The position numbers were made by a program, and so were the translations under genes. Shown piece after piece: positions 27,967-45,684 of a stretch of 64,000 bases of DNA (the stretch's first letter is position 1; each line of letters begins with the position of its first letter). Location of the stretch: NCBI GenBank assembly GCA_963749515.1, contig CAVVMR010000002.1, positions 69,854-133,853 of the forward strand, in the 5' to 3' direction. Source of the DNA: an uncultured Gaiellaceae bacterium. Lineage in GTDB: Bacteria; Actinomycetota; Thermoleophilia; Gaiellales; Gaiellaceae. The notes beneath the pieces are model-generated. The model saw only the letters and a list, made by a program, of their open reading frames with translations, was not told the origin of the DNA and did no database searches.

Positions 27967-28024
27967 CGTCCGGTGACGATAGCCCGCTTGACTGCCGGCG
28001 AGGGCGTGTGAGATCGTCGACCCA

Positions 28025-28060
28025 CTGTAAACGTTCTCAGTAATCCTTTTCAGTGATCGA
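28025..28060 (+). promoter_or_regulatory. Copy A of conserved 29(+5)-nt element containing a LacI-type palindromic operator
   Basis: CTGTAAACGTTCTCAGTAATCCTTTTCAG is identical to 31516-31544. After 2 mismatches, ATCGA is also shared. The core CTGTAAACGTTCTCAG is a CG-centred imperfect palindrome (12/16 positions). It lies 27 nt upstream of ATG 28080. Confidence 0.7.
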
Positions 28061-28079
28061 TTCAAGGACGGAGGCTCGC

Positions 28080-30227
28080 ATGGGAAACCGGCTCACACCG
28101 GTGCTGTTGGGCTGTATAGCCCTGTTCGTGATCTTGCTCGCGCCCTCGGCAGTCGGCTCGAGCAGCGCGGCGGAAGGGAGCCTCACGAGCGCCTCCTTCC
28201 GCTCCGCCACGCTGAAGGAAGACATCAACTACAACGTCTACCTGCCGGCGGGATACGGGGGCTCCGCCGAGCGCTATCCGGTGCTCTATCTCCTGCACGG
28301 GCGCGGCGACTCGATGAGCGCCTGGACGCAGATGAAGAGCACGCTCGACGAGCTGATCGCCGCCGAGGAGATTCCTCCGACGATCGCGATCATGCCCGAC
28401 GCGCCGTGGAGCAGCCGGGCGAGCTACTACGTGGACTCGGCCTACAAGGGCGCGGATCCGGGCCGGCCGGTCGAGACGGCATTCACCTGCGATCTGATCA
28501 AGCACGTCGACGCCGCCTACCGGACCGTGGCCGACCGCTCGGGCCGCGGCATCGCCGGCTACTCGATGGGTGGCTACGGCGCGATGCGCTACTCGCTCGC
28601 GCACCCCGACCTCTTCGGAGCCGCGATCGTGCTCAGCCCGGCCGTCTACTATCCCGAGCCGCCGCTCGACTCCAGCACGCGCGAGTTCGGCGCCTTCGGC
28701 AAGGGTAAGAAGCTGTTCGTCGAGAAGATCTACAAGCAGCTGAACTACCCGACCACCTTCCATTCCTTCGAAGCGACCGGCCTGCCACAGCGGATGTTCA
28801 TCGCGGTCGGCGACGACGAGTTCAAGAACACCAACCCCAAGGACTTCGAGCACGACCTCGACTTCGAGGCTCATGTGCTCTTCAACAAGGCCCAGAGAGT
28901 CGAGAATCTCAGCTCGGAGCTCCGGGTCGTCGACGGCGGGCACGACTGGGACGTCTGGGGGCCGCAGTTCGTCGAGGGCGCGAAGTACATCTTCGAATTC
29001 CTGAAGCCGCCGCCAGTCCTGATGAAGGCCAAGCTGACGGGCACGGCCGGTGAGGAGCGCGCGGGAGGCGTCGCCACCGACACGGCCGGCAACGTCTACC
29101 AGGCTCTCGCGGGCGGAGGGTCCGTCAACGGCCAACCGTTCGCCGGCGACAAGGACCTCGTGCTCACCAAGCAAGCCGCGAGCGGCGCGACGGTCTGGAC
29201 GCGCGCGATCGGCACCGTCCGGCTCGAGCGGCCCTACGGCGTCGCGGTCGACCCGCAGGGCAACGTGGTCGTCACCGGATACACGAACGGGGATCTGGAC
29301 GGCAACCACGCCGGCAACACGGCGGACGACGTCTTCGTCGTCAAGTACGACCCCAGCGGCAACCAGGTCTGGCTGCGGCAAATCGGTGTGCCGGGGCTCG
29401 CGGACCGTGGCTACGCAATCGCCACCGACGCGATCGGGAACGTCTATGTCACCGGGTACACGCGCGGCAACCTGGCCGGCACGAACCAGGGCGACAAGGA
29501 CGTCTACCTCCTGAAGCTCGATCCGAGCGGCGCTCAGGTCTGGCTACGGCAGTTCGGAGGCGCCGGTGAAGACAAGGGCTGGGGTGTCGTCGCCACAGCC
29601 GACGGCGTTCGCGTCGCCGGTATGACGTCGGGTGCGATCGGCACTCCGGTGGGTGCGCTCGACGGCTGGGTCGCCCGCTACGACGCCGCCGGCAGCCAGG
29701 TCTGGCTGCAGCAGTTCGGCACCACAGAGAACGAGGAGGTCTGGGGGCTGACGGCGGATGTCGCCGGCAACTCGTACGTTGCCGCCTATTCGGCGGGCGA
29801 CTTCGACGGCCCGCTGGCGGGGGACAAGGACCTCGTCGTGGCCCGGTTCGACTCCTCCGGCGCCCTGACGTGGAAGGATCAGGTCGGGACGACCCTGAAC
29901 GACAAGGGCGCCGCGATCGCGCTCGACGGTGCCGGCAACATCTACGTCGCCGGCTTCTCGGACGGCAAGCTGGCCGGCCGCGTCGGCAAGTTCGACGTCG
30001 TGCTCCTCAAGTACGCGCCGGACACCAGCCTCGAATGGACACGCCAGTTCGGGACGGTCGAGGACGACGGAGCCGACGCGTTCGCCGAGGCCAACCTCTA
30101 CCTCGCGACCCACGGCGGAAAGGTCTACGTCTCCGGGCTCACGCTCGGCGATGTCGAGGGCGCCCCGCAGGTCGGGCTCGGCGACGTCTTCCTCGCGACA
30201 TTCGACGCCGCGGGGGTCAACGGCTGA
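28080..30227 (+). CDS. Secreted esterase (esterase-D/CE1-like alpha/beta hydrolase) fused to a 7-bladed SBBP-type beta-propeller
   Basis: ORF 28053..30227, with the start moved to ATG 28080 (MGNRLTPVLLGCIALFVILLAPSAVG signal peptide; GGAGG upstream). Esterase blocks PVLYLLHGRGD and nucleophile elbow GYSMGGYGA. Seven repeats of the type GNVYVTGYT.G.L.G...GD.DVFVVKYD.SG..VWL.Q.G. Confidence 0.78.
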   Translation: MGNRLTPVLLGCIALFVILLAPSAVGSSSAAEGSLTSASFRSATLKEDINYNVYLPAGYGGSAERYPVLYLLHGRGDSMSAWTQMKSTLDELIAAEEIPPTIAIMPDAPWSSRASYYVDSAYKGADPGRPVETAFTCDLIKHVDAAYRTVADRSGRGIAGYSMGGYGAMRYSLAHPDLFGAAIVLSPAVYYPEPPLDSSTREFGAFGKGKKLFVEKIYKQLNYPTTFHSFEATGLPQRMFIAVGDDEFKNTNPKDFEHDLDFEAHVLFNKAQRVENLSSELRVVDGGHDWDVWGPQFVEGAKYIFEFLKPPPVLMKAKLTGTAGEERAGGVATDTAGNVYQALAGGGSVNGQPFAGDKDLVLTKQAASGATVWTRAIGTVRLERPYGVAVDPQGNVVVTGYTNGDLDGNHAGNTADDVFVVKYDPSGNQVWLRQIGVPGLADRGYAIATDAIGNVYVTGYTRGNLAGTNQGDKDVYLLKLDPSGAQVWLRQFGGAGEDKGWGVVATADGVRVAGMTSGAIGTPVGALDGWVARYDAAGSQVWLQQFGTTENEEVWGLTADVAGNSYVAAYSAGDFDGPLAGDKDLVVARFDSSGALTWKDQVGTTLNDKGAAIALDGAGNIYVAGFSDGKLAGRVGKFDVVLLKYAPDTSLEWTRQFGTVEDDGADAFAEANLYLATHGGKVYVSGLTLGDVEGAPQVGLGDVFLATFDAAGVNG

Positions 30228-30273: not shown

Positions 30274-31452
30274 TCATGCGGTCGCGAGCGCCTCCGGCCG
30301 GAGCGTCGCACCGCTCGCAGGATCGAAGAAGTGAAGCCGGCTCGGATCGAGCGCGAGCTTGAAGCGGTCTCCCGGCTGGACCGGAGTGCCTTCGGCGACC
30401 TCGGCGGTGAAGAACGCGCGCTTGTCACTGGCCAGCAGCGACGCCCGCTCCTGGTCGTCGCTTGCGGCGCGCACGGAGTCGACGTCGACGGGCGGCGCCT
30501 CGATCGCGAAGAGCACGTGCGTCGCCGAGCCCAGCTCCTCGACGACGGCGACGTCGATCTCGATCGTCGGCAGCGAGGGGTCGGCCGTGCGGGCGTCGGC
30601 GAAGTCCTGCGGGCGGATGCCGAGAATCAGAGTGTCGGACGAGCCCTCGGTTGGGCGCCGAGTCTCTGTGAGCGGCACCCGGAACCCTGCGAACAGCACA
30701 GCGTCATCGGTGAGCGTCGCGTCGACGAGGTTCATCGACGGCGAGCCGATGAACGCTGCCACGAACAGGTTCCGCGGCTCGCGGTAGAGCACCTGTGGTG
30801 TGTCGACCTGCTGGACGGTCCCGTCGCGCATCACGGCCACGCGCGTTCCGAGCGTCATTGCCTCGACCTGGTCGTGTGTGACGTAGATCGTCGTCACTCC
30901 CAGACGCTCGTGCAGCCGCGCCAGCTCGGCTCGCATGTCGACGCGGAGCTTCGCGTCGAGGTTCGAGAGCGGCTCGTCCATGAGGAACGCGGCAGGCTCG
31001 CGCACGATTGCCCGGCCCATCGCCACCCGCTGCCGCTGCCCGCCCGAGAGCGCCCCGGGGCGCCGGTCCAGCAATTCCTCGAGGCCAAGCATGCGCGCCA
31101 CCAGCTGAACACGACGGTTGATCTCTTCCTTCGGCGTCTTCCGAACCTTGAGCCCGTAGCCGAGGTTCTTCGCGACCGTCAGGTGCGGGTAGAGGGCGTA
31201 GTTCTGGAAGACCATCGCGATGTCTCGATCCCGGGGCGCGAGCCTCGCGACCTCCTGGTCGCCGATCCAGATGTCGCCCTCCGTGACCTCCTCGAGGCCG
31301 GCGATCATCCGCAGCAGCGTCGACTTGCCGCAGCCGGACGGCCCGACGAGAACCATGAACTCGCCGCTCGCGATCGTCAGGTTGATGTCGTCGACAGCGC
31401 GTACGTCACCCTCGTAGACCTTCCCCACCTGTTCGAGCCTGATCTCGGCCAC
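30274..31452 (-). CDS. Sugar ABC transporter ATP-binding protein (MsiK/MalK/UgpC-like)
   Basis: ORF 30274..31452 with a GTG start. Walker A GPSGCGKST, signature LSGGQRQR, Walker B FLMDEP. C-terminal MalK-type regulatory/OB domain. Confidence 0.9.
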   Translation of the reverse strand: MAEIRLEQVGKVYEGDVRAVDDINLTIASGEFMVLVGPSGCGKSTLLRMIAGLEEVTEGDIWIGDQEVARLAPRDRDIAMVFQNYALYPHLTVAKNLGYGLKVRKTPKEEINRRVQLVARMLGLEELLDRRPGALSGGQRQRVAMGRAIVREPAAFLMDEPLSNLDAKLRVDMRAELARLHERLGVTTIYVTHDQVEAMTLGTRVAVMRDGTVQQVDTPQVLYREPRNLFVAAFIGSPSMNLVDATLTDDAVLFAGFRVPLTETRRPTEGSSDTLILGIRPQDFADARTADPSLPTIEIDVAVVEELGSATHVLFAIEAPPVDVDSVRAASDDQERASLLASDKRAFFTAEVAEGTPVQPGDRFKLALDPSRLHFFDPASGATLRPEALATA

Positions 31453-31515
31453 GTCCGGTTGCTCCTTCGCGGTTGCTCTTGACTCCGATCGCGATCGTAT
31501 GACATTCTCGAACTG

Positions 31516-31551
31516 CTGTAAACGTTCTCAGTAATCCTTTTCAGAAATCGA
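31516..31551 (+). promoter_or_regulatory. Copy B of the conserved operator-containing element (lacI / msiK-like divergent intergenic region)
   Basis: Same 29 nt as 28025-28053, in the same orientation. It sits in the 142-bp gap between the GTG of the ATPase gene (31452) and the GTG of the LacI gene (31595). Confidence 0.7.
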
Positions 31552-31594
31552 CACGCCTGAGACCCAGCCAACGCGCGAGGACCCGGCCGGCACC

Positions 31595-32590
31595 GTGCCG
31601 ACGATCACGACTGTCGCGCGCCTGGCGAATGTGTCCGTCGCCTCTGCGTCCCGGGTGATGAACGGCATCCGCACGAGCGCGGCGACGCTCGAGCGGGTGA
31701 CGGAGGCAGCCGAGGCGATCGGATACGTGCCGAACGCGGCCGCTCGCACGCTCCGGTCGCGTCGAACGGGCCAGATCGCGTTCGCCATGCCGGACGTCGG
31801 CAACCCGGTCTACACGACGATGATCGCCTCGATCCAGGACGTGGCGAAGGCCCGCGGCTGGCGGTTGATGCTCCACTCGACCGGAGCGGACATGGAGGAC
31901 GAGCTCGCCATAGTCCGGGACCTGAAGCACCGGTTCGTGGACGGGCTGATCCTGGCGTCGCTCCATCTCACGGACGTACACGCGGACGAGCTTCGGCGCG
32001 CCGCAGCGCCGGTGATCCTGATCGGGCGGCCGACAACTGGCACGACCGTCGACACGGTCCGGACGTACTCGCGCAAGGGCGCCTCTGAGGCCGTACGGCA
32101 TCTCTACGGGGCAAACCGCAGGCGAATCGGGTTCGTAAACGGCCCCCAGCACACGTTGCCCGGAGCGTCGCGCCGGCTGGGCTACCTCGACGGCCTGCGC
32201 TCGTGCTCGCTCGCCCGTGACGACACGCTGATCGAGGTCGCCGAAGACTTCATGATCGAGCCGGGCCGCCGTGCGGCGGTGCGCCTGCTCGAACGTGGTC
32301 GCCTCGACGCGATCCTCTGCGCGAACGACCTGCTCGCGATCGGCGCGCTCGCGGCGCTCCGCGACGCCGGCCTCGACGTTCCGCGCGACGTGGCGCTCGT
32401 GGGAATGGACAACACGCCGCTCTCCGAGGTCACGTGGCCGACCCTGACGACCGTCGACCTCGGCTCCTCCGAGCGGGCCCGGATCGCCGCCGAGCTGCTG
32501 CTCGAGCGGATCGAGGACCCGGCCCGAGAGCCACGCGTCGTCGGCGTCGCGCCACGGCTCGTCGTCCGCGCCTCGTCGGGTGCCCAGTAA
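31595..32590 (+). CDS. LacI-family transcriptional regulator
   Basis: ORF 31595..32590. N-terminal HTH TITTVARLANVSVASASRVMNG, followed by a periplasmic-binding-protein-like sugar-binding core. Confidence 0.9.
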   Translation: MPTITTVARLANVSVASASRVMNGIRTSAATLERVTEAAEAIGYVPNAAARTLRSRRTGQIAFAMPDVGNPVYTTMIASIQDVAKARGWRLMLHSTGADMEDELAIVRDLKHRFVDGLILASLHLTDVHADELRRAAAPVILIGRPTTGTTVDTVRTYSRKGASEAVRHLYGANRRRIGFVNGPQHTLPGASRRLGYLDGLRSCSLARDDTLIEVAEDFMIEPGRRAAVRLLERGRLDAILCANDLLAIGALAALRDAGLDVPRDVALVGMDNTPLSEVTWPTLTTVDLGSSERARIAAELLLERIEDPAREPRVVGVAPRLVVRASSGAQ

Positions 32591-33525
32591 TGAGTACCGT
32601 CCCGGAGGCAGGCCGGCCGGTCTTCAAGCGGCGCAAGCGCGGCCGCGCCGGGTCGGGCCTCTCCGGCCGCGAGACGATGCTGCTGCTGATCCCGGCGCTC
32701 CTGCCGATCGTGATCCTCAGCGTCCTGCCGCTCGTGCGCGGGATCTACCTCGGCTTCACGGATGCGCAGGCCGGCTTCGAGATCACTACGAACTTCATCG
32801 GCCTCGACAACTTTCGCACGCTGCTCGAGGACGACCTCTTCGTCAACTCGTTCAAGATCGGCCTGATCTGGTCGGTCTCCGTGACCGCGATCGGCTTCTG
32901 CTTCGCGCTCGGCCTGGCGCTCCTTCTGAGCCAGAACCTGAAGGGGCGCTGGCTGGCACGCTCGCTCGCCCTCGTCCCCTGGGCGATGCCGGCGGTCGTC
33001 GTCGGGATCATGTGGAAGCTCTTCTTCCAGCCGCAGGCCGGGATCCTGAACGAGATCCTGCGCCGCGGCCACATTCCGGGCGACACCACGGACTGGCTCT
33101 CGAGCTTCAGCTGGGCACTGCCGGCGGTGATCCTCGTCGGCGTCTGGGCGGGCATGCCGCAGACGACCGTGGCGCTGCTGGCGGGACTCCAGTCGATCCA
33201 GGACGAGCTGCACGAGGCGGCGGCCGTCGACGGCGCGACGGCCTGGCAGCGGTTCCGGACGATCACGCTGCCGCAGTTGCGCCCCGTGATCATTGCGATC
33301 ACGACGCTCGACTTCATCTGGAACTTCAACTCGTTCGGGCTCGTCTACGTCCTGACCGAGGGCGGGCCGGCGGGCAAGACCCAGCTCCCGATGCTGTTCG
33401 CCTACAGCCAGGCGTTCGAGTACGGCCAGTTCGGCTACGCGTCGGCGCTCGGCAGCGCGATGGTCGTCGTGATCGCCGTTGCGCTCGTCTTCTACCTCTG
33501 GGGCCGGCTGAAGGAGGCGAAGTGA
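32590..33525 (+). CDS. Carbohydrate ABC transporter permease (CUT1 family)
   Basis: In-frame part of ORF 32434..33525 from ATG 32590 (TAATG overlap with lacI). EAA loop EAAAVDGATAWQRFRTITLPQLRP. Confidence 0.88.
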   Translation: MSTVPEAGRPVFKRRKRGRAGSGLSGRETMLLLIPALLPIVILSVLPLVRGIYLGFTDAQAGFEITTNFIGLDNFRTLLEDDLFVNSFKIGLIWSVSVTAIGFCFALGLALLLSQNLKGRWLARSLALVPWAMPAVVVGIMWKLFFQPQAGILNEILRRGHIPGDTTDWLSSFSWALPAVILVGVWAGMPQTTVALLAGLQSIQDELHEAAAVDGATAWQRFRTITLPQLRPVIIAITTLDFIWNFNSFGLVYVLTEGGPAGKTQLPMLFAYSQAFEYGQFGYASALGSAMVVVIAVALVFYLWGRLKEAK

Positions 33526-34370
33526 TCGTCACCGCCAGACCCAAGCGAGCGAAGAGCTTCCAGTACGCGGCGCTCTTCGCCTACGTCCTCTTCCTCGGCT
33601 TCCCGCTCCTCTGGCTGCTGTCGATGTCGCTCAAGGGGCCGCGTGAGCTCGTGCAGCTCTACCCGTCGTTCATCCCGAATGACTTCACGTTCGAGAACTA
33701 CCGGTTGGCGCTGACCGAGGAGAACCACCAGTTCATCCGCAGCGGCATCAACAGCTTCAAGATCGCCGTCGTCACCGCCCTGCTGACGACGATCGTCGGC
33801 CTGCCGGCGGCGTACGTGCTCGCGCGGCGGAGGGGCCTGATCACACGGCTCGGGCTCGGCTGGATCCTGCTCAGCCAGATGTTCCCGCTGATCCTGATCA
33901 TCATCCCGCTCTTCCTGCTCCTGCGCGACCTGAAGCTGACGAACTCCCACGTCGGCCTCGTGCTCGTCTACGTCGTCTGGGCGCTCCCGTTCGTCCTCTT
34001 CATGCTCTACACGTACGTGCGCGGGATCCCTCGCGACCTCGAGGAGGCGGCGACGGTCGACGGCGCGACGCGGTTCCAGATCCTGACCGGGATCATCGCG
34101 CCGCTCCTCATGCCGGGGATCGTCGTGACGACGCTCTTCGCGTTCATCACCGCCTGGAACGAGTTCTTCTTCGCACTCGTGATCCTCGAGAGCCCCGATC
34201 TGACGACGCTGCCGCTGAGGCTCGCGCAGTACGTCGGGATCGAGGGAGTCGTCAGGTTCGGCCCGCTCGCCGCAGCCGCCCTGCTGGCGACCCTGCCCAG
34301 CCTTCTCCTCTTCACGATCATCCAGCGCTGGCTCACCAGCGGCCTTCTCTCGGGGGCGGTCAAGGGCTAG
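33522..34370 (+). CDS. Carbohydrate ABC transporter permease (CUT1 family), second subunit
   Basis: In-frame part of ORF 32580..34370 from GTG 33522 (GTGA overlap; AAGGAGG upstream). EAA loop EAATVDGATRFQILTGIIAPLLMP. Confidence 0.88.
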   Translation: MIVTARPKRAKSFQYAALFAYVLFLGFPLLWLLSMSLKGPRELVQLYPSFIPNDFTFENYRLALTEENHQFIRSGINSFKIAVVTALLTTIVGLPAAYVLARRRGLITRLGLGWILLSQMFPLILIIIPLFLLLRDLKLTNSHVGLVLVYVVWALPFVLFMLYTYVRGIPRDLEEAATVDGATRFQILTGIIAPLLMPGIVVTTLFAFITAWNEFFFALVILESPDLTTLPLRLAQYVGIEGVVRFGPLAAAALLATLPSLLLFTIIQRWLTSGLLSGAVKG

Positions 34371-34439
34371 CGGAATGTCGTCACAAACGAAACCACGGCG
34401 TCGCGTGACGGCGCCCGACCGCAGAAAGGCGGGTCAGTA

Positions 34440-35705
34440 ATGAGGAAGGTCATCGTGCTTGGCGCTTTGGCCCTGCTGTGCTCCGTGCTCGTAGCCGGAG
34501 CCCAGGCGGGTAAGCAGGGTGCTGTCGTCAAGCTCAAGTTCGCCACGTACGTGTGGCAGCCGACGACGGTCAAGGCCAACAAGGAGATCGTCGACGCCTG
34601 GAACAAGAGCCATCCCGGCATCCAGGTCGAGATCGTCCCGGTCGACGTGAACTCGGTCCACGACAAGCTCCTGACGAGCTTCGTCGGCGGCACCGCGGCG
34701 GACATCATCCACGACGAGGCCGCCGACATCGCCGGCTTCACGCAGCAGGGCTACCTGGCGAACCTGACGCCGCTGATCCCGAAGTCGCTCAAGGCCTCGA
34801 TCCCGAAGGACATCTGGGCGACGACGAACTTCGGCGGCAGGATCACGGGCGTCCCGTCGCTGATGCAGACGTACAACATCTTCGCGAACATGACGATCCT
34901 GAAGGCGGCCGGGATCAAGGCCCCGACGCTCGCCGCTCCGTGGACGTGGGCGCAGTTCCGGGCGAACGCGAAGAAGCTGACGAAGTCCGGCCAGTACGGC
35001 GTCTGCTGGGGCCTCCGCTCGCCGGTGGCCGCGGTGCAGACGATGGCCCTCAACTACGGCGGACAGTTCTTCTACCTCGAGAACGGCAAGTGGACGTTCA
35101 AGTTCGGCCCGAACGACCAGAACGTGATCAAGCAGATGCACGACATGATCCACGTCGACAAGTCGGTCGATCCCGCCGCAACCGGGCTCTCCGGCAGCGC
35201 CGTGCTCCCCGCCTTCTTCGGCGGCAAGTGCGCGATGACGGTGGCGGGAAACTTCACCGCCCAGAGCATGATCCTGCAGGGCCCGAGGGGCTTCAACTGG
35301 GCGATGTTCCCGCTGCTGAAGGGCCAGACGCAGCAGCAGGTGGCAAACCCGCAGACGTACTCGATCTCGGCGCAGAGCCAGAACAAGCAGTCCGCGATGT
35401 TCTTCCTCGCGTACCTCGTGAACAAGCAGAACCTGGCCAAGCTCGCCCAGGGTGACTGGCTGATCCCGTCGAACCCGGAGGCCGGCAAGCTGTTGCGCAA
35501 GTCGACCAAGCGCGCCGGCAGCTGGAAGATCGCGACCGAGTCGGTCGTGCACTTCCGCAAGGGGAACTGGGTCTCGCTCGCGGCGTACCCGCGCTGGAAG
35601 GCGGAGGTCGCTCAGCCGGCGTTCGTCCAGTACCTGCGGGGCTCGACGAGCCTGCAGGAGCTGGAGAAGTCGCTCGCCGACGGCTGGACGAGAGTCAGAG
35701 GATAG
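34440..35705 (+). CDS. Carbohydrate ABC transporter substrate-binding protein (family 1 extracellular solute-binding protein)
   Basis: ORF 34440..35705. Signal peptide MRKVIVLGALALLCSVLVAGAQA, followed by typical CUT1 binding-protein length and composition. Confidence 0.85.
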   Translation: MRKVIVLGALALLCSVLVAGAQAGKQGAVVKLKFATYVWQPTTVKANKEIVDAWNKSHPGIQVEIVPVDVNSVHDKLLTSFVGGTAADIIHDEAADIAGFTQQGYLANLTPLIPKSLKASIPKDIWATTNFGGRITGVPSLMQTYNIFANMTILKAAGIKAPTLAAPWTWAQFRANAKKLTKSGQYGVCWGLRSPVAAVQTMALNYGGQFFYLENGKWTFKFGPNDQNVIKQMHDMIHVDKSVDPAATGLSGSAVLPAFFGGKCAMTVAGNFTAQSMILQGPRGFNWAMFPLLKGQTQQQVANPQTYSISAQSQNKQSAMFFLAYLVNKQNLAKLAQGDWLIPSNPEAGKLLRKSTKRAGSWKIATESVVHFRKGNWVSLAAYPRWKAEVAQPAFVQYLRGSTSLQELEKSLADGWTRVRG

Positions 35706-35715
35706 GAAAGGCTGT

Positions 35716-35754
35716 TCCCAGCCGGCCGCCGGACCTCCGGACGGCCGGCTGGGA
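35716..35754 (+). promoter_or_regulatory. Strong intercistronic hairpin after the binding-protein gene
   Basis: 13-bp perfect stem TCCCAGCCGGCCG / CGGCCGGCTGGGA. The 13-nt loop can extend the stem by CCGG/CCGG. Its position downstream of the binding-protein gene suggests mRNA-stabilising or attenuating function. Confidence 0.55.
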
Positions 35755-35783
35755 GACATCGACTGCGAAACGAGGATGAGGAC

Positions 35784-36944
35784 GTGAACGGAGACCTGCT
35801 GACCGACCGGTCCGTCGGCTGCCTCGCCGGGGCCGCGGTAGGTGACGCGCTCGGCGGTGCGACGGAAGGCTGGGAGTCGCACGAGATCCGCGCGCACTTC
35901 GACGGCTGGGTGACCGGAATCGTCGAGTCGATCCGCCGGACGCTCAAGGTCGAGAAGGCGTTCTCGCCCTTCCACAAGGGCGACGGCCACGTCACCGACG
36001 ACACGCTGATGACGCGCGTCCTCGTTCATGCCTACGACGTCAAGCGGGACCATCTCGACGCGTACGACGTCGAGGCCTTGATGCTCCCGGAGATCGTCGA
36101 CAAGCCGATGTGGGTGCCCGAGCTCGGCCGTGAAGACCTCCTCTACCACCGCCTCTTCCTGGCCGAGAAGTGGCTCGTCCTCAAGCTTCGCTACGGCCAC
36201 GCCGACCCCCGAGACGCCGGGGTCGGGAACATCGTCAACTGCGGTGCGGCGATGTACATCGCGCCGGTGGGCATCGCGAACGCCGGCGACCCGCAGGGCG
36301 CCTACAACGAGGCGATCGACCTCAGTGGCGCGCATCAGTCCAGCTACGGGCGCGAGGCTGCCGGCGTGCTCGCGGCCGCGGTCGCGGAGGCGCTCCGGCT
36401 GGGTGCGACGGTCGACGACGTGGTCGAGACTGCGCTTCGCTTCGCGAAGGATGCGACGCGCTCCTCGATCGAGGCGGTGGTCGAGACCGCCGCGAAGCTG
36501 GACGGGTGGCGCGCGGGCGGGCTCGACGAGCTGCGCGGCGCGTTTGCACCGTTCGACTCGGTCGGGGAGCCGTACGCCCAGCCGGCGCAGAACGCACGCA
36601 TTCCCAGCAGGCTGCATGCGATCGAGGAGCTTCCCCTCGCTCTCGGGATGCTCGTCGCGACCGGCGGCAACTACGAGGAGACGGTGCTCGGGGGCGTCAA
36701 CTACGGGCGCGACTCGGACTCGATCGCCTCGATGGGCGGCGCGCTCGCCGGCGCTCTCGGCGGGATCGGAGCGGTGCGGCGCGACTGGGTCGACGACGTG
36801 TCGGCAGCGAGCCGGATCGACGTCGAGGAGGCGGGCCGGAAGATGGCCGTCGCCGCAGCCGAGATCTTCGTGCGCGACACGCAGCGGCACGAGCAACGCG
36901 CGCAGGCGATCGCGGCGCTCACCGCCGGCGAGGTGCCTGCTTGA
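35784..36944 (+). CDS. ADP-ribosylglycohydrolase-family protein (ARH/DraG fold), paralog 1
   Basis: ORF 35784..36944 with a GTG start. N-terminal motif GCLAGAAVGDALGGATEG and C-terminal metal-site motif GVNYGRDSDSIASMGGALAGAL. Confidence 0.8.
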   Translation: MNGDLLTDRSVGCLAGAAVGDALGGATEGWESHEIRAHFDGWVTGIVESIRRTLKVEKAFSPFHKGDGHVTDDTLMTRVLVHAYDVKRDHLDAYDVEALMLPEIVDKPMWVPELGREDLLYHRLFLAEKWLVLKLRYGHADPRDAGVGNIVNCGAAMYIAPVGIANAGDPQGAYNEAIDLSGAHQSSYGREAAGVLAAAVAEALRLGATVDDVVETALRFAKDATRSSIEAVVETAAKLDGWRAGGLDELRGAFAPFDSVGEPYAQPAQNARIPSRLHAIEELPLALGMLVATGGNYEETVLGGVNYGRDSDSIASMGGALAGALGGIGAVRRDWVDDVSAASRIDVEEAGRKMAVAAAEIFVRDTQRHEQRAQAIAALTAGEVPA

Positions 36945-38272
36945 GGTTGAGGGTGACTTGGGTTCAGCCCGAGGATCTCGTCGGGCACGAGCTCAATCAA
37001 GCCCGGGAGGAAGGGAAGGACGTCGACGACGTCGAGCGGCGGTGGTTCGCCGCCGGCGGCGCGCCGGCGCCGGGCCGCGGCGCGTCGCAGGAGCCCGTGC
37101 CGGACGAGCTCCGCGCCCTGGCGGTCGAGCTGCTCGACGAGCTGGACGCACTGCCGCGGCCGCTCGCGGCGAGCGAGCCGGAGACGTTCGAGGAGATCAT
37201 CGCCGCGGCGGACCCCGCCGAGCGGCGGGATCCCCTGGATCTGCCCGAACGGATCGCCGGCGCGTGGCTCGGCCGCGCCGCCGGCTGCGTGCTGGGCAAG
37301 CCGGTCGAGAACATCCCGCGCGAGGGGATCCGGGCGATCGCGGAGGCGACGGGCAACTGGCCGGTCGCGGGATGGTTCACCGCCGAAGGCCTGCCGGAGG
37401 AGGTCTCGGAGCGCTGGCCGTGGAACCGCGCGAGCCGGCCGACGAGCCTGGCGGAGAACATCGACGGGATCCCGGAGGACGACGACCTCAACTTCACGCT
37501 GCTCGGGGTGGCGTTGCTCGAACGGTGCGGGACCGGCTTCGACGCGCTCGACGTGGCGAAGATCTGGCTCGACTACCTGCCGCCCGGCCGGATCTTCACA
37601 GCGGAGCGGGTCGCGATGCGAAACGTGCTCGAGGCGTATCTCCCGCCGCAGACCGCAACACGCCGAAATCCGTTCCGCGAGTGGATCGGCGCACGCCTGC
37701 GGGTCGACGCGTACGGCTGGGCGGCACCGGGCCATCCGGTCGCGGCGGCGCGGATGGCCTGGGAGGACGCCCGTGTCAGCCACACCGCGAACGGGGTCTA
37801 CGCGGCGATGTTCATGGCAGCCGCCCACGCTGCGTCCCTCTCCGAGACGTCCGCGGCCGCCTGCGCAGACGCCGGCCTCTCCGTCGTCCCGGCGCGGAGC
37901 CGGCTGGCCGGCGCGCTCCGCGCCGCTCGCGATCTCGCGCGCGAGCACGAGTGGGAGACGGTCGTGGACGAGATCTACGCGGGCCAGGACTACCACTGGG
38001 TGCACGCGATCAACAACACCGCGCTCGTCGCCGCCGCGCTCTACGCCTTCGACGGCGACTTCTCGGGCGGCATCTGCGCCGCCGTTCAGGGAGGTCTGGA
38101 CACGGATACGAACGGCGCCGCGGTGGGTTCGATCCTGGGCGCGCTCGCGGGCACCGGCGGGATCGAAGAGCGGTGGTCGGCGCCCCTCGGCGGCCGATTC
38201 GAGAGCTCGCTGCCGGGGTTCGATGGGATCACGCTCGACGAGCTGGTGCAGAGAACGCTGGCGATCGCGTGA
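36941..38272 (+). CDS. ADP-ribosylglycohydrolase-family protein, paralog 2, with ~95-aa acidic N-terminal extension
   Basis: In-frame part of ORF 36170..38272. Candidate starts are TTG 36941 (TTGA overlap), TTG 36947 and GTG 36953. Motifs GAWLGRAAGCVLGKPVE and GGLDTDTNGAAVGSILGALAG. Confidence 0.75.
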   Translation: MRLRVTWVQPEDLVGHELNQAREEGKDVDDVERRWFAAGGAPAPGRGASQEPVPDELRALAVELLDELDALPRPLAASEPETFEEIIAAADPAERRDPLDLPERIAGAWLGRAAGCVLGKPVENIPREGIRAIAEATGNWPVAGWFTAEGLPEEVSERWPWNRASRPTSLAENIDGIPEDDDLNFTLLGVALLERCGTGFDALDVAKIWLDYLPPGRIFTAERVAMRNVLEAYLPPQTATRRNPFREWIGARLRVDAYGWAAPGHPVAAARMAWEDARVSHTANGVYAAMFMAAAHAASLSETSAAACADAGLSVVPARSRLAGALRAARDLAREHEWETVVDEIYAGQDYHWVHAINNTALVAAALYAFDGDFSGGICAAVQGGLDTDTNGAAVGSILGALAGTGGIEERWSAPLGGRFESSLPGFDGITLDELVQRTLAIA

Positions 38273-40038
38273 GCATCCCGCACGAGGAGCCGCGCGACCC
38301 CCTCGTTCCGAGGCCGATCGACCTGCCTACGGCGGTGCCGCTCGAGCCCGGCGCGGAGCTCGACGTTCTGGACACGGCGAAGATCCTCGCCGCCCCCGAC
38401 GATCCGGCCGACTGGCCCACCTGGCGTGAGACGCTGAAGCGCTGGCGGGCCGAGGCGGCCGCGCGGATCGCGTACGACGACGGTGCCTACCGCGCGCCGG
38501 AGCTCGCGTGGACGCAACAGTGCTTCTCGGTCGCGCTCGCCTGGCTCTGGGACGAGCTTCTCTACGACCACGCTGCCGCCCGCTTCACGCCGGAGCGGTT
38601 CTGCGAGGAGTCGGAGCGCGAGTTCGGCGGCTTCGACGGCGTGGTGCTGTGGCACGCGTATCCGGTGATCGGGATCGACGAGCGCAACCAGTTCGACTAC
38701 TACCGCGACGTCCCCGGCATCCGCGAGCTCGTCGCCGCCTTTCAGGCCCGGGGCATCCGCGTGTTTGTCAACTACAACCCGTGGGACGTCGGCACCCGGC
38801 GCGAGAACGTCGAGGATGAGGAGGCGATCGGACGGCTCGTGGGAGAGCTCGGCGTCGACGGCGTCTTCCTCGACACGATGAAGGAGGCGCGTCCGGGCCT
38901 GCGGGCCGCAGTCGACGCGGCGCGGCCCGGCGTCGCGTTCGAGGGCGAGTCGACACTGGCGCTGGCGCGGGTGTGCGACCACCATCTCTCCTGGGCGCAG
39001 TGGTTCAGCGACAGCCCCGTTCCCGGTGTCCTCCGCGCCCGGTGGTTCGAGCAGCGGCACATGCTCCATCACACGCGGCGCTGGAACAGGTCGCATCTGG
39101 AGGAGCTGCACAACGCCTGGCTGAACGGCGTCGGCATGCTCGTGTGGGAGAACGTCTTCGGCGCCTGGGTCGGCTGGAACGAGCGGGACAAGGAGCTGCT
39201 GCGCGCGATGCTCTCCGTCCAGCGCGAGCACGCCGGGCTGCTGGCGACCGGCGAGTGGACTCCGCTGGCCGCGTGCTCGAACGACACGCGCGTCGTCGCG
39301 TCACGCTGGACGGACGGCGAGACGACGCTGTGGGCTCTCGCCAACCGCGGGGAAGCGTTCACGGGGCGCGTCGGCGAGCTCGAGGTTCAGCTGCCCGCAC
39401 TCGGGATCGCGGCGTTCGTGAACGGGGAGCGGGTGGTGGTCGCGGGCGGCGGCGACGCGAGCTTCCCCGCACGGGAGACGGTGCGGGCGCCGGCTCCGGT
39501 CGTCCGGGTCGACGCCGTGCCCGAGGGATTCGCGGCGGTCGAGCCCCGGCCGCTCACAGCCGTCTTCCGCCTCCGCGAGACGGAGGGGTACAGCGAGGCG
39601 CCGTTCGTCGAGGAGTGGAAGCCGCTGCCGCCGCGGCTGCACAGCTTCATCGCGGTCGAGCGCCCGGCGCCGCGGGGGCGATTCGCCGTCTCGGTCCGCG
39701 AGGTCCAGACCGGGCTCGACCTCGCAGAGGCGCGCGCGTACGCCGCCTCCGTCGGCGCCCGGCTGCCGACCGAGGACGAGTGGCAGCTCGCCGCCGAGGC
39801 GGGTGTCCTGGATCTTTCCGGTCCCCGGGTCTGGAACTGGACCGAGAGCGAGCACTCGGACGGCCGGACTCGCTTCGCCATCCTCAAGGGCGGCTCGGAC
39901 TGGAAGGCGGAGGGGTCGGACTGGTACGTCGACGGCGGGCCGCAGGACCCAAACTACTCGCTGAAGCTGCTGCTGCTCGGCGGCGGCCTGGCGCGCTCCG
40001 CGAACATCGGCTTCCGGCTGGCCGTCGACCTGCCATGA
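38269..40038 (+). CDS. Uncharacterised fusion protein: N-terminal TIM-barrel glycosidase-like region plus C-terminal FGE-sulfatase (SUMF1/EgtB-type, C-lectin-like) domain
   Basis: In-frame part of ORF 36130..40038 from GTG 38269 (GTGA overlap). N-terminal part: GFDGVVLWHAYPVIGIDERNQFDYY...GIRVFVNYNPWDVG...LGVDGVFLDTMKE. C-terminal part (about 39679-40035): AEARAYAASVGARLPTEDEWQLAAE...VWNWTESE...ANIGFRLAVD. Confidence 0.65.
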   Translation: MSIPHEEPRDPLVPRPIDLPTAVPLEPGAELDVLDTAKILAAPDDPADWPTWRETLKRWRAEAAARIAYDDGAYRAPELAWTQQCFSVALAWLWDELLYDHAAARFTPERFCEESEREFGGFDGVVLWHAYPVIGIDERNQFDYYRDVPGIRELVAAFQARGIRVFVNYNPWDVGTRRENVEDEEAIGRLVGELGVDGVFLDTMKEARPGLRAAVDAARPGVAFEGESTLALARVCDHHLSWAQWFSDSPVPGVLRARWFEQRHMLHHTRRWNRSHLEELHNAWLNGVGMLVWENVFGAWVGWNERDKELLRAMLSVQREHAGLLATGEWTPLAACSNDTRVVASRWTDGETTLWALANRGEAFTGRVGELEVQLPALGIAAFVNGERVVVAGGGDASFPARETVRAPAPVVRVDAVPEGFAAVEPRPLTAVFRLRETEGYSEAPFVEEWKPLPPRLHSFIAVERPAPRGRFAVSVREVQTGLDLAEARAYAASVGARLPTEDEWQLAAEAGVLDLSGPRVWNWTESEHSDGRTRFAILKGGSDWKAEGSDWYVDGGPQDPNYSLKLLLLGGGLARSANIGFRLAVDLP

Positions 40039-41222
40039 CGCAGCCCCTGGCCGGGATCCGCGTCGTCGAGGCGGCCACGCTCTTTGCCGCGCCGCTGGCG
40101 GGGATGCTCCTCGGCGACTTCGGCGCCGACGTGATCAAGATCGAGCATCCGAAGCGTGCCGATGCGGCGCGCGGCCACGGCCCGAGCAAGGACGGCGTCG
40201 GCCTGTGGTTCAAGACGCTCGCCCGGAACAAGCGCCTGGTCACGCTCGATCTCTCCGCGCCCGAGGGCGCCGAGCTCTTCCTCCGGCTGGTCGAGAGCTC
40301 GGACGTCGTGCTGGAGAACTTCCGCCCCGGGACGCTCGAGCGGTGGGGGCTCGGCTGGGACGAGCTCTCGGCGGTGAACCCGCGGCTCGTGCTCGCGCGC
40401 GTCAGCGGCTTCGGCCAGACCGGACCGGACGCGACGCGCCCCGGCTTCGGGACGCTCGCCGAAGCTCTGAGCGGCTTCGCATCCCTGAACGGAGAGCCCG
40501 ACGGTCCGCCACTGCTGCCGCCGCTCGCGCTCGCGGACGGCGTTGCGGGCCTGGCGACCGCGTTCGCGATCCTCGCAGCCCTGAGGGCACGCGAGCAGAC
40601 GGGGCGAGGGCAGGTTGTCGACACGTCGCTCGTGGAGCCGCTGATGGCGCTCCTCGGCCCGCAGCTGACCGCCTACGACCTGCTCGGACAGCTCCAGCCC
40701 CGCACGGGCAATCGCTCGAGCCACAATGCGCCGCGAAACGTCTACCGCACGGCGGACGGGTCGTGGGTGGCGGTGTCCGCGAGCGCCGACTCGGTCGCGG
40801 CGCGGGTTCTTCGCCTCGTCGGCAGACCGGACCTCGTGGAGCAGCCCTGGTTCTCGACCGGGTCCGGCCGCGCGACGCACGTGGACGAGATCGACGAAGC
40901 AGTCGCAGCATGGATCAGGGAGCGCGATCGCGCCGAGGTGCTGGCGGCGTTCCAGGCAGCTGAGGCGGCGATCTCGCCGATCCACGACGCGAGCGACATC
41001 CTCGCCGATCCGCAGCTCGCCGCGATCGGAGCGATCCTCAGCATCGACGACGCCGACCTTGGTCCGATCAAGATGTCGAACGTGATCAGCCGTCTCTCCG
41101 AGACGCCGGGCGAGGTCCGCCACCCGGGCGGCCGCCAGGGCGAGCACACCGAGTCGGTTCTCGGCGAGCTCGGCGTCACCCCGGACGAGCTCGCCCGGCT
41201 ACGCGGCGAAGGTGTCGTGTGA
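40035..41222 (+). CDS. Family III CoA-transferase (CaiB/BaiF/Frc-like)
   Basis: In-frame part of ORF 38973..41222 from ATG 40035 (ATGA overlap). GIRVVEAATLFAAPLAGMLLGDFGADVIKIEHP, ENFRPGTLERWGLGWDEL, SGFGQTGP. Confidence 0.85.
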   Translation: MTQPLAGIRVVEAATLFAAPLAGMLLGDFGADVIKIEHPKRADAARGHGPSKDGVGLWFKTLARNKRLVTLDLSAPEGAELFLRLVESSDVVLENFRPGTLERWGLGWDELSAVNPRLVLARVSGFGQTGPDATRPGFGTLAEALSGFASLNGEPDGPPLLPPLALADGVAGLATAFAILAALRAREQTGRGQVVDTSLVEPLMALLGPQLTAYDLLGQLQPRTGNRSSHNAPRNVYRTADGSWVAVSASADSVAARVLRLVGRPDLVEQPWFSTGSGRATHVDEIDEAVAAWIRERDRAEVLAAFQAAEAAISPIHDASDILADPQLAAIGAILSIDDADLGPIKMSNVISRLSETPGEVRHPGGRQGEHTESVLGELGVTPDELARLRGEGVV

Positions 41223-41228
41223 TCGGCC

Positions 41229-41300
41229 GGGCCGCGAAGCGGCCCCTTCAGGGGTCTTGCGCGACAGGGGATCCGCTCCCGCGGATCCTCTGTCCTGCGC
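41229..41300 (+). promoter_or_regulatory. Two consecutive GC-rich hairpins between CoA-transferase and CitE-like genes
   Basis: First hairpin: GGGCCGC gaa GCGGCCC (41229-41245). Second hairpin: GCGC..CAGGGGATCCGC tccc GCGGATCCTCTG..GCGC (41259-41300), a 12-bp stem with one G-U pair plus an outer GCGC clamp. No T-tract. Confidence 0.55.
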
Positions 41301-41316
41301 CAACGAGAGGTGTCGT

Positions 41317-42132
41317 GTGAGCGTTCCGCCGCTTACCTGGCTGTACGTCCCTGCGGATCGTCCCGACCGGGTCGAGAAGGCGATCGCCTCGGCGGCGCAC
41401 GCGGTGATCGTCGACCTCGAGGACGGCGTCGCGCCCGCGGCGAAAGCGGACGCCAGGGCCAGCCTCCCGGCCATCCTCGGCAATCGTCGCGACAAACCGG
41501 TCTACGTGCGCGTCAACGCCGGGGATGACGACGACCTGGACGTCGTCTCAAGCCTCGCCATCGAAGGCATCCACGTGCCGAAGGTCAGCGAGCCGGGAGA
41601 CGTCCCTTCGCTCGAACTGCCGGTGCACTGCCTGATCGAGTCCGCGGCGGGCGTCGAGGCTGCCTACGAGATCGCCAGGACGCGTGGCGTCGCCGGCATC
41701 TCGCTCGGGGAGGCCGACTTGCGCTCAGAGACCGGTGCGCTCGAGGCCGGGCTCGACTGGGCGCGCGGCAGGATCGTGAACGCCGCCGTCGCCGCGGGGC
41801 TGCCGCGCCCACCGCAGTCGGTGTACCCGCACCTGAACGACGACGAAGGGCTCGCCCGCTCGTGCCGGCGCGGTCGCGAGCTCGGGCACCTCGGCCGCAC
41901 GGCCATCCATCCGGCGCAGCTCTCGATCATCGAGCAGGCGTATCTTCCGACCGAGGAGGAGACGGCTCGGGCTCGCGCAACCGTCGAGCGGCTCGAACAG
42001 GCGCTCGGCGCGTCTGCGCTGGCGGGCGGCGACTTCGTGGACGCCGCGATGCTCGGCATGGCGCGCCAGATCCTCGAGCTGGCCGAACGGTTCGGAACGG
42101 TCGCAGCGGCGCTTGTAGACGTTGACGATTGA
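41317..42132 (+). CDS. HpcH/HpaI-family lyase, CitE-like (citryl/malyl/citramalyl-CoA lyase beta-subunit type)
   Basis: ORF 41212..42132, with the start moved to GTG 41317 (GAGAGG 6 nt upstream). LTWLYVPADRPDRVEKAIASAAHAVIVDLEDGV, VRVN, ESAAGVE, GRTAIHPAQL. Confidence 0.8.
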   Translation: MSVPPLTWLYVPADRPDRVEKAIASAAHAVIVDLEDGVAPAAKADARASLPAILGNRRDKPVYVRVNAGDDDDLDVVSSLAIEGIHVPKVSEPGDVPSLELPVHCLIESAAGVEAAYEIARTRGVAGISLGEADLRSETGALEAGLDWARGRIVNAAVAAGLPRPPQSVYPHLNDDEGLARSCRRGRELGHLGRTAIHPAQLSIIEQAYLPTEEETARARATVERLEQALGASALAGGDFVDAAMLGMARQILELAERFGTVAAALVDVDD

Positions 42133-43374: not shown

Positions 43375-43710
43375 GTGGACGACCCGCACGGAGGCTTTAC
43401 GGTCATCCAGCTCCGCGGCGAAGCGGACGCGTACACCGCACCCCGGATTCGCTCGGACCTGACGAGCGCCCTCGACACGCCGGCGCCGCTCGTCGTCGAC
43501 CTGTCCCAGGCCACGTTCATCGACTCGACCGTCGTCGGCATCCTGCTCGAGGGCCTGGCCGAGTACGAGAAGCGCGAGCGTGCGCTCGTCCTGCTGCTTC
43601 CGGACGAATCGGCGCCGGAAGTGCACCGCCTCTTCGAGCTGACGGGCCTCACCTCGCTGCTCCCGGTCGTGCGCACCTGGGACGAGGCCGCGAGCCGCGT
43701 CGCGAGCTAG
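43375..43710 (+). CDS. STAS-domain protein (anti-sigma-factor antagonist-like)
   Basis: In-frame part of ORF 43198..43710 from GTG 43375 (start uncertain). FTVIQLRGEADAYTAPRIRSDL...VVDLSQATFIDSTVVGILLEG. Confidence 0.7.
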   Translation: MDDPHGGFTVIQLRGEADAYTAPRIRSDLTSALDTPAPLVVDLSQATFIDSTVVGILLEGLAEYEKRERALVLLLPDESAPEVHRLFELTGLTSLLPVVRTWDEAASRVAS

Positions 43711-45517: not shown

Positions 45518-45577
45518 GCTGAAAACGGTACTCGACCGGCGTCGGAACGGCGTCGTCCGCTCTGACGAGGCCGAAAT

Positions 45578-45594: not shown

Positions 45595-45684
45595 TGCAAT
45601 CGCGAGCGCGGCCGATGCCGGCGGAACCCTTCGGGCCTAGCCTCGAAAAACGTGCTGACCCGACTCGAAGGAGAGACCCACCTC

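Follow-up and report, generated by a model that had tools for sequence, protein, structure and literature searches.

A putative LacI-controlled cassette that joins a sugar importer, ARH-fold proteins and a predicted glycosidase-fold protein to CoA-thioester enzymes in Gaiellaceae and other bacteria

A 64-kb stretch of DNA from an uncultured Gaiellaceae bacterium (contig CAVVMR010000002.1, positions 69,854 to 133,853; G+C ~70%; hereafter the window) carries a gene cassette in which a LacI-family repressor and a CUT1-type ATP-binding cassette (ABC) sugar importer stand beside two ARH-family proteins (ARH1 and ARH2), a two-part protein with a TIM-barrel half and a formylglycine-generating enzyme (FGE)-fold half (TIM/FGE), a family III CoA-transferase and a CitE-like acyl-CoA lyase. 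Comparison of related loci supports the view that these genes constitute one conserved functional unit. We favor, at a probability of roughly 0.45, the reading that LacI represses this unit and that the unit serves to catabolize, after import, a ribofuranosyl glycoside of a hydroxy-carboxylic acid, a compound composed of one or more D-ribofuranosyl residues, an alpha-linked sugar and an acid aglycone. As judged from sequence comparison and a structural model, what would be new here is the enzyme set, which has no precedent in a catabolic sugar regulon, together with a glycosidase-fold family.

The case for a single unit comes from gene neighborhoods. Related loci came from three sources: GTDB species, each represented by one genome and searched with a TIM/FGE protein alignment; JGI metagenome contigs, searched with more distant family members as seeds; and exact look-ups. 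This gave 165 loci with a relative of the TIM/FGE gene, onto which the window proteins were mapped by tblastn. Counts for the CoA-transferase and lyase genes refer to loci with at least 4.5 kb of sequence downstream, counts for the ARH genes to loci with at least 4 kb upstream, and loci with room on both sides are termed fully covered. The TIM/FGE gene is followed by the CoA-transferase gene in 106/107 loci and by the lyase gene in 105/107, the ARH1 and ARH2 genes lie upstream of it in 107/109, and all seven core genes are found in 67 of the 69 fully covered loci. The CoA-transferase and lyase genes are thus co-conserved with the ARH, TIM/FGE and transporter genes in ~99% of the 107-109 informative loci, across three divergent lineages. 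Because the CoA-transferase, lyase and ARH genes stay with the TIM/FGE gene across loci, accidental juxtaposition is ruled out.

The first of the three lineages comprises Gaiellaceae and their relatives (G+C ~0.70, 62-89% identity). The second consists of cultured Micromonosporaceae (~0.72 G+C, 53-57% identity), the carriers including Micromonospora, Plantactinospora, Phytohabitans, Dactylosporangium, Actinorhabdospora and Rugosimonospora. The third is a low-GC clade (L094-L104, 0.43-0.47 G+C) in which the TIM/FGE protein is 39-43% and the lyase 31-36% identical to that of the window. The core is intact despite rearrangement around it. Specifically, msiK, which encodes the MsiK-type ATPase of the importer, may be divergent, downstream or absent, lacI stands first or between the ARH2 and TIM/FGE genes, and the positions of a carbohydrate esterase gene and of a PfkB-family sugar kinase gene (pfkB) vary. 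The msiK gene adjoins the cassette in 23/24 Gaiellaceae-type loci and is absent from the Micromonosporaceae cassettes. Cassettes of the low-GC clade have neither an internal pfkB nor an esterase gene in or beside them, and one of them (L103) ends directly at lexA and nrdJ, the latter encoding a class II ribonucleotide reductase.

Two natural fusions occur within the cassette, one joining PfkB to the N-terminus of TIM/FGE (P0134, locus L085) and the other joining, in a single metagenomic lineage, the C-terminus of TIM/FGE to an esterase without the beta-propeller of the window enzyme (P0122, locus L084). An 859-residue protein with the appearance of an ARH-TIM/FGE fusion (P0094) was not counted; the neighboring genes on its contig are fragmented, and it appears to result from a frameshift in assembly. 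When the other flanking open reading frames (ORFs) of the ~165 loci were compared all against all, no further recurrent gene family emerged, and the genes listed here therefore form the complete pathway-specific set. In Micromonospora sp. NBC_00898, two paralogous genes with GDE_N_bis and MGH1-like domains (GH63-type, mannosylglycerate-hydrolase-like) lie just 3' of the cassette (L044, 13956-18958). These GH63-type genes were dropped as candidate members, since they are not conserved in other loci.

The same comparison bears on the possibility that two unrelated modules share one operon, one for sugar import and hydrolysis and the other for salvage of an organic acid such as citramalate, malate, 3-hydroxy-3-methylglutarate (HMG) or itaconate. 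Family III CoA-transferases paired with CitE-like lyases do stand alone elsewhere, for example in itaconate degradation, the best models for the cassette lyase are RipC/Ccl, and the lyase gene of the window begins without overlap if a start at 41317 is used. However, the adjacency of the pair to the TIM/FGE gene persists in 106/107 loci and in all three lineages, with proteins diverged down to 31-39% identity and other genes rearranged. An ATGA junction couples the TIM/FGE and CoA-transferase genes, the esterase gene can be inserted between the supposed modules, no acid transporter is present, and itaconyl-CoA hydratase is missing from every locus. Co-conservation thus largely refutes a two-module operon, which we regard as very unlikely.

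One line of evidence for a glycoside as the probable substrate is the TIM/FGE protein. An AlphaFold model built from a diverse alignment (pLDDT 93.8, pTM 0.93) replaced an earlier one based on close homologs, which had a pLDDT of 61 and an unusable C-terminal half. In the model, residues ~20-400 fold as a (beta/alpha)8 barrel with a beta-sandwich C-terminal to it. A Foldseek search of the PDB gave, as its 50 best matches, exclusively alpha-glycosidases of glycoside hydrolase (GH) families GH129 and GH13 (E 6e-11 to 2e-7, TM-scores 0.35-0.43), the best being ZgGH129 (6e-11), with GH13 neopullulanases, alpha-glucosidases and amylases at ~1e-9 to 1e-7. On this model, the N-terminal half is a GH129/GH13-like alpha-glycosidase fold with predicted activity. 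Residues conserved in family alignments are D95, D123, D137, R139, D173, D197, D202, E227 and R271. Of these, D202 is invariant or nearly so and E227 nearly invariant; they are positioned after the predicted strands 198-201 and 223-226, respectively, and have a putative catalytic role. The strand ends of the barrel carry the motifs RVFVNYNPWD, DGVFLDTMKE (after strand 4) and AFEGES (after strand 5), of which the last two resemble, by eye, regions II and III of GH13.

The likeness to known members, such as the 3,6-anhydro-D-galactosidase ZgGH129 and neopullulanase, extends to the order of predicted barrel and beta-sandwich (Foldseek E 6e-11 to 1e-8) and to the GH13-like motifs. In contrast to these enzymes, TIM/FGE has no significant Pfam GH match, aligns with the low TM-scores given above, and has a cysteine-free FGE-fold domain appended. 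Specifically, none of 48 diverse TIM/FGE members matches a Pfam GH catalytic domain, and the faint matches obtained are to a GH C-terminal sandwich and to GHL6 (E 0.02-0.23); the family profile in addition matches the C-domain of GH13 maltogenic amylases weakly (~1e-3). An earlier note on this DNA, written without database searches, had seen no usual partner of a sugar-utilization locus, be it a classical GH family, a kinase, an isomerase or a phosphorylase. At the level of recognizable Pfam families this holds for the window, but the model revises it in that the locus does appear to contain a glycosidase-like enzyme, namely the TIM half, and orthologous cassettes carry a ribokinase-type kinase.

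With respect to the C-terminal part of the protein, residues ~420-589 form an FGE-fold domain (PF03781, 31.1 bits against a cut-off of 23.3), and the family profile matches SUMF2/FGE structures at E 1e-26 to 1e-22. Residues 400-589 contain no cysteine, so this domain is not a formylglycine-generating enzyme; the two catalytic copper-binding cysteines are impossible, and we rejected FGE activity. A role in binding or structure is the most likely one for the domain, and its confident packing against the barrel half in the model suggests that it contributes to the substrate site. Relatives P0002-P0120 go by the public names 'formylglycine-generating enzyme', 'sulfatase modifying factor 1' or 'SUMF1/EgtB/PvdO family nonheme iron enzyme', and such names are misleading for this cysteine-free, glycosidase-fold branch.

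The window protein is 99% identical to an ENA metagenome protein and 81-85% identical to proteins from metagenome-assembled genomes of Gaiellaceae, and the family as a whole numbers 1,869 representative clusters (50% identity) at E <=1e-3 and 402 at E <=1e-30. Distant homologs adjoin other LacI/ABC sugar systems (L086). A further distant relative, the metagenomic protein P0188 (1546 aa), is extracellular and of cellulosome type, with two CHB_HEX_C_1 domains, Fn3_assoc domains and a type I dockerin. Either context would suit an enzyme that acts on glycans. The sole close homologs without the cassette (41% identity; L099 and L100, ~3900-13900) have neighbors that point to sulfation rather than sugar catabolism, namely three genes for sulfotransferases, one for CysN/APS-kinase and one for a TauE sulfite exporter. 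On two independent contigs (L091 7300-7980, L092 1185-1865), a gene of the DeoC (deoxyribose-phosphate aldolase) family lies directly 5' of the gene for a 1055-residue distant homolog, which may be a further pentose link of the family. As a clue to the substrate, the contexts of distant homologs proved too varied, encompassing DeoC, fucosidase/GH35, peptidases and sulfotransferases.

The two ARH proteins would provide the proposed link to ribose. ARH1 and ARH2 match PF03747 at 160.5 and 155.6 bits (cut-off 26.2). The metal-site motifs of ARH1 (E28, T71-D72-D73-T74 and D310/D312/S313) are conserved across 71 orthologs, and the variant motifs of ARH2 (E123, E179-D180-D181-D182 and D387-T388-D389-T390) across 77, with equivalence to ARH3/DraG residues assigned by motif reading rather than structural superposition. 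Since the metal-binding motifs are kept in more than 70 orthologs each, both proteins are probably active enzymes. Membership in PF03747 and the acidic and Thr/Ser metal-binding motifs are shared with ARH1, ARH3, DraG and Tri1 of the literature. The cassette proteins differ from these in their very low similarity (E 1e-11 to 1e-4, mostly within the C-terminal motif), the lack of a transferase partner and the catabolic context. Among solved structures, ARH1 shows just distant similarity to ARH3, DraG, Tri1 and MJ1187, and ARH2 has almost none to any solved ARH; ARH2 also differs from ARH/DraG enzymes in having EDDD in place of TDDT and an N-terminal extension of ~100 residues. The earlier note called the two genes paralogs. 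Both do belong to ADP_ribosyl_GH, but they have no mutual tblastn match at 1e-5 and are not recent paralogs.

Their Pfam membership and intact metal-site motifs would also fit ARH proteins that reverse ADP-ribosylation of cellular proteins, as in DraG-like regulation, with the remaining locus incidental. We give this almost no credence. There is no ADP-ribosyltransferase partner, the ARH genes are translationally coupled within a LacI/ABC importer operon, and they are strictly co-conserved with the glycosidase-fold enzyme, the ribokinase and the CoA enzymes. Moreover, the scores against the DraG and Tri1 equivalogs (32.6 versus a cut-off of 337, and 36.1 versus 490) are far too low.

A ribosyl substrate is further suggested by the PfkB kinase gene, which is present in 44 of the 69 fully covered cassettes. 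It lies between the ARH2 and TIM/FGE genes in all Micromonosporaceae and most other non-Gaiellaceae loci, and 3' of the lyase gene in three Gaiellaceae-type loci. The best NCBIfam model for its product is bacterial ribokinase (TIGR02152), with a score of 269.8 bits that stays under the equivalog cut-off of 299.65. The protein contains the motifs GGKGANQAVAA, NLDLV and DTTASGDAF, which we take to be the ribose- and ATP-site signatures of E. coli RbsK.

A ribokinase-type gene would likewise suit an N-riboside resembling a nucleoside, for example a modified nucleoside or a natural product of nucleoside type. On that account, the ARH proteins would be unusual nucleosidases, as presumed for E. coli yegTUV, and the CoA pair would break down an acid side chain or a product of ring cleavage. 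Triads of a transporter, an ARH-family protein and a PfkB kinase are widespread, and yegTUV, with its nucleoside:H+ symporter, is of this kind. The yegTUV operon encodes a nucleoside-type transporter, the ARH-family protein YegU and the PfkB kinase YegV, and its function was still unknown in 2024 (PMC10819704). Like the cassette, it combines, in an operon under repressor control, genes for an importer, for a protein of the ARH family and for a PfkB-type sugar kinase, the likeness of the cassette ARH proteins to YegU being one of family and gene context. Unlike the cassette, yegTUV has a symporter of the major facilitator superfamily, a single ARH protein and a GntR regulator, and it has no glycosidase-fold/FGE protein, CoA-transferase or lyase. 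Rather than a nucleoside transporter, the cassette encodes an ABC importer of the CUT1 oligosaccharide type whose binding protein resembles MalE and YesO, an alpha-glycosidase-fold enzyme is an invariant cassette member, and no base-catabolic genes recur in the flanks of the loci. An N-riboside is therefore, in our estimation, quite an unlikely substrate.

Turning to the importer, the nearest solved structures of the binding protein are those of the oligosaccharide binders Lmo0181, YesO and MalE, which are not diagnostic of its ligand. The LacI regulator, two permeases, binding protein and putative cognate operator expected of a LacI/CUT1 sugar operon are all present. Indeed, the locus shares with actinobacterial LacI/CUT1 sugar operons that use a common MsiK-type ATPase the LacI protein with its palindromic, CG-centered operator, the MalF/MalG-type permeases, the family 1 binding protein, the MsiK/UgpC ATPase and the presence of cytoplasmic hydrolases. 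It differs in the nature of the hydrolases, which are two ARH-fold proteins and an unclassified glycosidase-fold/FGE-fold protein with no Pfam-recognized GH among them, and in that the operon runs on into CoA-thioester chemistry.

Upstream of msiK in the window is the esterase gene, which probably starts at ATG 28080 after a GGAGG sequence (the listed ORF opens at 28053) and encodes a protein with an N-terminal signal peptide. An ortholog lies inside or beside 27 of the 69 fully covered cassettes, 3' of the lyase gene in many Gaiellaceae and, in many Micromonosporaceae, inserted after the TIM/FGE gene and before the CoA-transferase gene. This enzyme is central to the alternative of an oligosaccharide or glycoside substrate acylated through an ester bond, from which the esterase would free a hydroxy-dicarboxylic acyl group (3-hydroxy-3-methylglutaryl, malyl or citramalyl) for the CoA pair, leaving the three glycosidases to handle sugar alone. 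The shared operator of the CE1 esterase gene and the operon, the Micromonosporaceae gene order, the propeller-less fusion P0122 and the succinate-hydroxymethylglutarate CoA-transferase among the nearest relatives of the CoA-transferase all speak for it. On the other hand, the esterase is found in just 27/69 cassettes versus ~99% for the CoA-transferase and lyase, and the low-GC clade has none in or beside its cassettes. Moreover, the window esterase is secreted, and an acid freed outside would need an importer of its own, of which there is none. We consider an ester-linked acid unlikely. That the esterase is optional and the CoA pair nearly universal favors a glycosidically bound acid over an ester-bound one. 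The earlier note had suggested a ribosylated or otherwise glycosylated or esterified acid; the ribosyl part gains indirect support from the in-cassette ribokinase-type PfkB, and the ester part is weakened.

In terms of the acid moiety, the CoA-transferase matches PF02515 at 416.1 bits over residues 5-372 of 395. Its nearest relatives are succinate-glutarate, hydroxymethylglutarate and formyl-CoA transferases, all below their equivalog cut-offs, the best being succinate-glutarate CoA-transferase (268.8 bits versus 750). The lyase matches PF03328 and PF15617 at 88.9 and 42.6 bits, and its best NCBIfam model is RipC/Ccl (122 bits versus a cut-off of 375). Among solved structures, its best relatives are 8khl and 9nzb, both entered as 'acyl-CoA lyase beta chain' (6e-32), followed by M. 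tuberculosis CitE (1e-21). Homology of the lyase to its orthologs begins only at residue 35-41, so the true start is probably GTG 41317, not 41212. The family chemistry of such pairs encompasses cleavage of malyl-, citramalyl- and HMG-CoA. By analogy, the transferase should activate a 3-hydroxy-acid, and the lyase should cleave the product to give a 2-oxo acid together with a short acyl-CoA.

The closest described counterpart of this pair is the itaconate module, which consists of the family III CoA-transferase Ict, the hydratase Ich and the CitE-like citramalyl-CoA lyase Ccl/RipC; malyl- and citramalyl-CoA steps occur in the 3-hydroxypropionate bicycle as well. The cassette has the same pairing of transferase and lyase, and the best relatives of its lyase are of the RipC/Ccl type. 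It differs in that the cassettes (~165 loci) have no hydratase, the scores fall far below the equivalog cut-offs, and the pair is embedded in a sugar operon. No itaconyl-CoA hydratase gene was found at the window locus or among the recurrent flank families of the ~165 loci, and we rejected itaconate degradation as the identity of the CoA module given that the hydratase gene is absent from every locus examined.

Evidence for joint control comes from an exact 29-bp repeat, CTGTAAACGTTCTCAGTAATCCTTTTCAG, with two copies in the window (0 expected from 100 shuffles). Its core, TGTAAACGTTCTCA, is an imperfect CG-centered palindrome of the LacI-operator type. In ~20 related loci, some with just ~65% protein identity, the region between msiK and lacI retains this core as TGTAAACGTTCTCA or TGTAATCGTTCTCA, and TGTAAACGTTCTCA is also found 5' of the esterase gene in L013, a locus with the same gene arrangement as the window. 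The second copy overlaps the -35-like TTTACA of a minus-strand promoter-like site, 31522-31494(-), directed toward msiK. Among NCBIfam models, the LacI protein matches RbsR best, but its 186 bits fall below the cut-off of 382, and the assignment is therefore at family level alone. Because the operator sequence is conserved, we infer that the LacI protein binds it and represses the operon, msiK and the esterase gene jointly via the TGTAAACGTTCTCA operators. As the 29-bp operator is common to both, the upstream esterase gene is, by this sequence criterion, part of the same regulon as the operon. An Rfam scan of the window was empty, with no riboswitch or other Rfam element at the locus, so there is no riboswitch control; a tRNA scan of the window was empty as well.

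A second candidate control element is a hairpin at 35715-35755, which is GC-rich with a predicted stability of -42.8 kcal/mol (z = -5.44; 0/200 shuffles equally stable). It has no U tract, and it may serve as an mRNA-stabilizing or processing element that uncouples transporter from enzyme expression. This hairpin affects the claim of the earlier note that the genes are made from a single message. The coupled junctions on which that claim was based are exact, but co-transcription is deduced from them, and the stable hairpin splits the transporter genes from the enzyme genes.

The layout of the locus, as obtained by ORF listing and translation together with Pfam and NCBIfam scans of the window, is given in Table 1. 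The ten genes of the earlier note and their Pfam families were recovered at the positions it gave, as were five stop/start overlaps: TAATG at 32588-32592, GTGA at 33522-33525, TTGA at 36941-36944, GTGA at 38269-38272 and ATGA at 40035-40038. Its count of eleven plus-strand genes was wrong; nine are called, and its own list names nine. The locus is flanked by unrelated signaling genes, namely a GAF/HisKA_3 histidine kinase gene at 26833-28065(-) and a PAS histidine kinase gene at 42203-43282(+). Further downstream, at 43707-45686(-), is the gene for a 659-residue response regulator with a C-terminal receiver and LuxR-type helix-turn-helix (HTH) domain, preceded by ~430 N-terminal residues with no Pfam match. 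The flanking signaling genes are not conserved beside the cassette in other genomes.

Table 1. Genes and other features of the cassette locus, in window coordinates
Feature	Position	Strand	Evidence or remark
Operator copy 1, exact 29-bp repeat CTGTAAACGTTCTCAGTAATCCTTTTCAG	28025-28053	+	directly 5' of esterase gene
Secreted CE1-type esterase (PF00756) with C-terminal SBBP beta-propeller	28080-30227	+	Esterase 97.2 bits, SBBP 86 bits
MsiK/UgpC-type ABC ATPase (ABC_tran and OB_MalK)	30274-31452	-	divergent; Pfam; UgpC subfamily 467.6 bits (cut-off 432)
Operator copy 2, CTGTAAACGTTCTCAGTAATCCTTTTCAG	31516-31544	+	msiK-lacI intergenic region
LacI-family repressor (LacI HTH and Peripla_BP_3)	31595-32590	+	Pfam
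CUT1 ABC permease 1 (MalF/UgpA-like), BPD_transp_1	32590-33525	+	Pfam/NCBIfam
CUT1 ABC permease 2 (MalG-like), BPD_transp_1	33522-34370	+	Pfam/NCBIfam
Family 1 extracellular solute-binding protein, SBP_bac_1, signal peptide	34440-35705	+	121.7 bits
Stable RNA hairpin, no U tract	35715-35755	+	between binding-protein gene and ARH1
ARH-family hydrolase 1 (ARH1), ADP_ribosyl_GH	35784-36944	+	160.5 bits
ARH-family hydrolase 2 (ARH2), ADP_ribosyl_GH	36941-38272	+	155.6 bits
TIM/FGE two-part protein, 589 residues; FGE-sulfatase match confined to C-terminal part	38269-40038	+	31.1 bits
Family III (CaiB/BaiF) CoA-transferase, CoA_transf_3	40035-41222	+	416.1 bits
CitE-like acyl-CoA lyase, HpcH_HpaI and C-C_Bond_Lyase	ORF opens 41212, likely start GTG 41317, end 42132	+	88.9 and 42.6 bits

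From the gene families, conservation, fusions, operator repeat and predicted fold observed here, we infer the catalytic steps and the nature of the substrate. Where present, the secreted CE1 esterase would trim or release the compound extracellularly, and the CUT1 system, consisting of the binding protein, the two permeases and the MsiK-type ATPase, would import it. In the cytoplasm, the two divergent metal-dependent ARH-fold enzymes would cleave ribosyl bonds to give D-ribose. The in-cassette ribokinase of most orthologous loci would phosphorylate this ribose; in the window genome, the kinase would have to be encoded elsewhere. The GH129/GH13-like TIM/FGE enzyme would then cut the remaining alpha-glycosidic bond and liberate the free acid. 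By the chemistry of their families, the family III CoA-transferase would turn the acid into a CoA thioester, and the CitE-like lyase would cleave the thioester, giving a 2-oxo acid and a short acyl-CoA such as acetyl-CoA. Expression would be governed by binding of the LacI protein to the TGTAAACGTTCTCA operators before the esterase gene and between msiK and lacI, as the conservation of these sequences suggests. Compared with the import-and-dismantle route of the earlier note, the central idea is strengthened by the single conserved unit and the fusions inside the cassette, but details change in that the locus has a glycosidase-like enzyme, the FGE half is cysteine-free and the upstream esterase lay outside the coordinates then considered.

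Several points weigh against a catabolic regulon for a ribofuranosyl glycoside of a hydroxy acid. To our knowledge, ARH members of proven activity act on ADP-ribosylated substrates and not on free small ribosides, and we know of no natural compound of exactly the proposed composition. The TM-scores of the TIM domain are just 0.35-0.43, and its presumed catalytic residues are placed by motif resemblance alone. The PfkB score lies slightly under the ribokinase equivalog cut-off, and the window itself contains no ribokinase gene. The strong hairpin after the binding-protein gene leaves co-transcription of transporter and enzymes unproven. Finally, the cassette may have been exchanged horizontally among the three lineages, in which case the co-conservation counts are not fully independent. 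As candidate substrates, we considered aminoglycosides, apiosides, hamamelose derivatives, acylated flavonoid glycosides, bacillithiol fragments, methanopterin and modified nucleosides, none of which explains all members of the cassette.

Full-text literature searches found no description of this combination of genes, with yegTUV the sole useful analog, and the statement of the earlier note that no described pathway has this gene set stands. We propose tentatively, with the odds somewhat against it, that the pathway is an undescribed one in which ARH-fold enzymes would act as metabolic ribosidases, TIM/FGE, for which neither a Pfam nor a CAZy-type model was found, would found a new glycoside hydrolase family and a glycosidically bound hydroxy-acid aglycone would be processed by the CoA pair, the substrate being an unrecognized but common ribose metabolite of soils and fresh water.

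If true, this would give a large and puzzling part of the ARH/DraG superfamily its first metabolic, non-signaling role, including the pairing of ARH and PfkB proteins as in yegTUV. It would also define a new glycosidase-fold family, so far labeled just FGE/SUMF1-like by domain libraries. Several cassette-bearing strains of Micromonospora and Plantactinospora, such as Micromonospora sp. NBC_00898 and Plantactinospora endophytica, are cultured and genetically accessible, which makes the proposal directly testable. Taken together, these findings would point to a ribose compound common enough to sustain a dedicated regulon in the abundant soil Gaiellaceae, in plant-associated Micromonosporaceae and in a low-GC lineage of environmental metagenomes.

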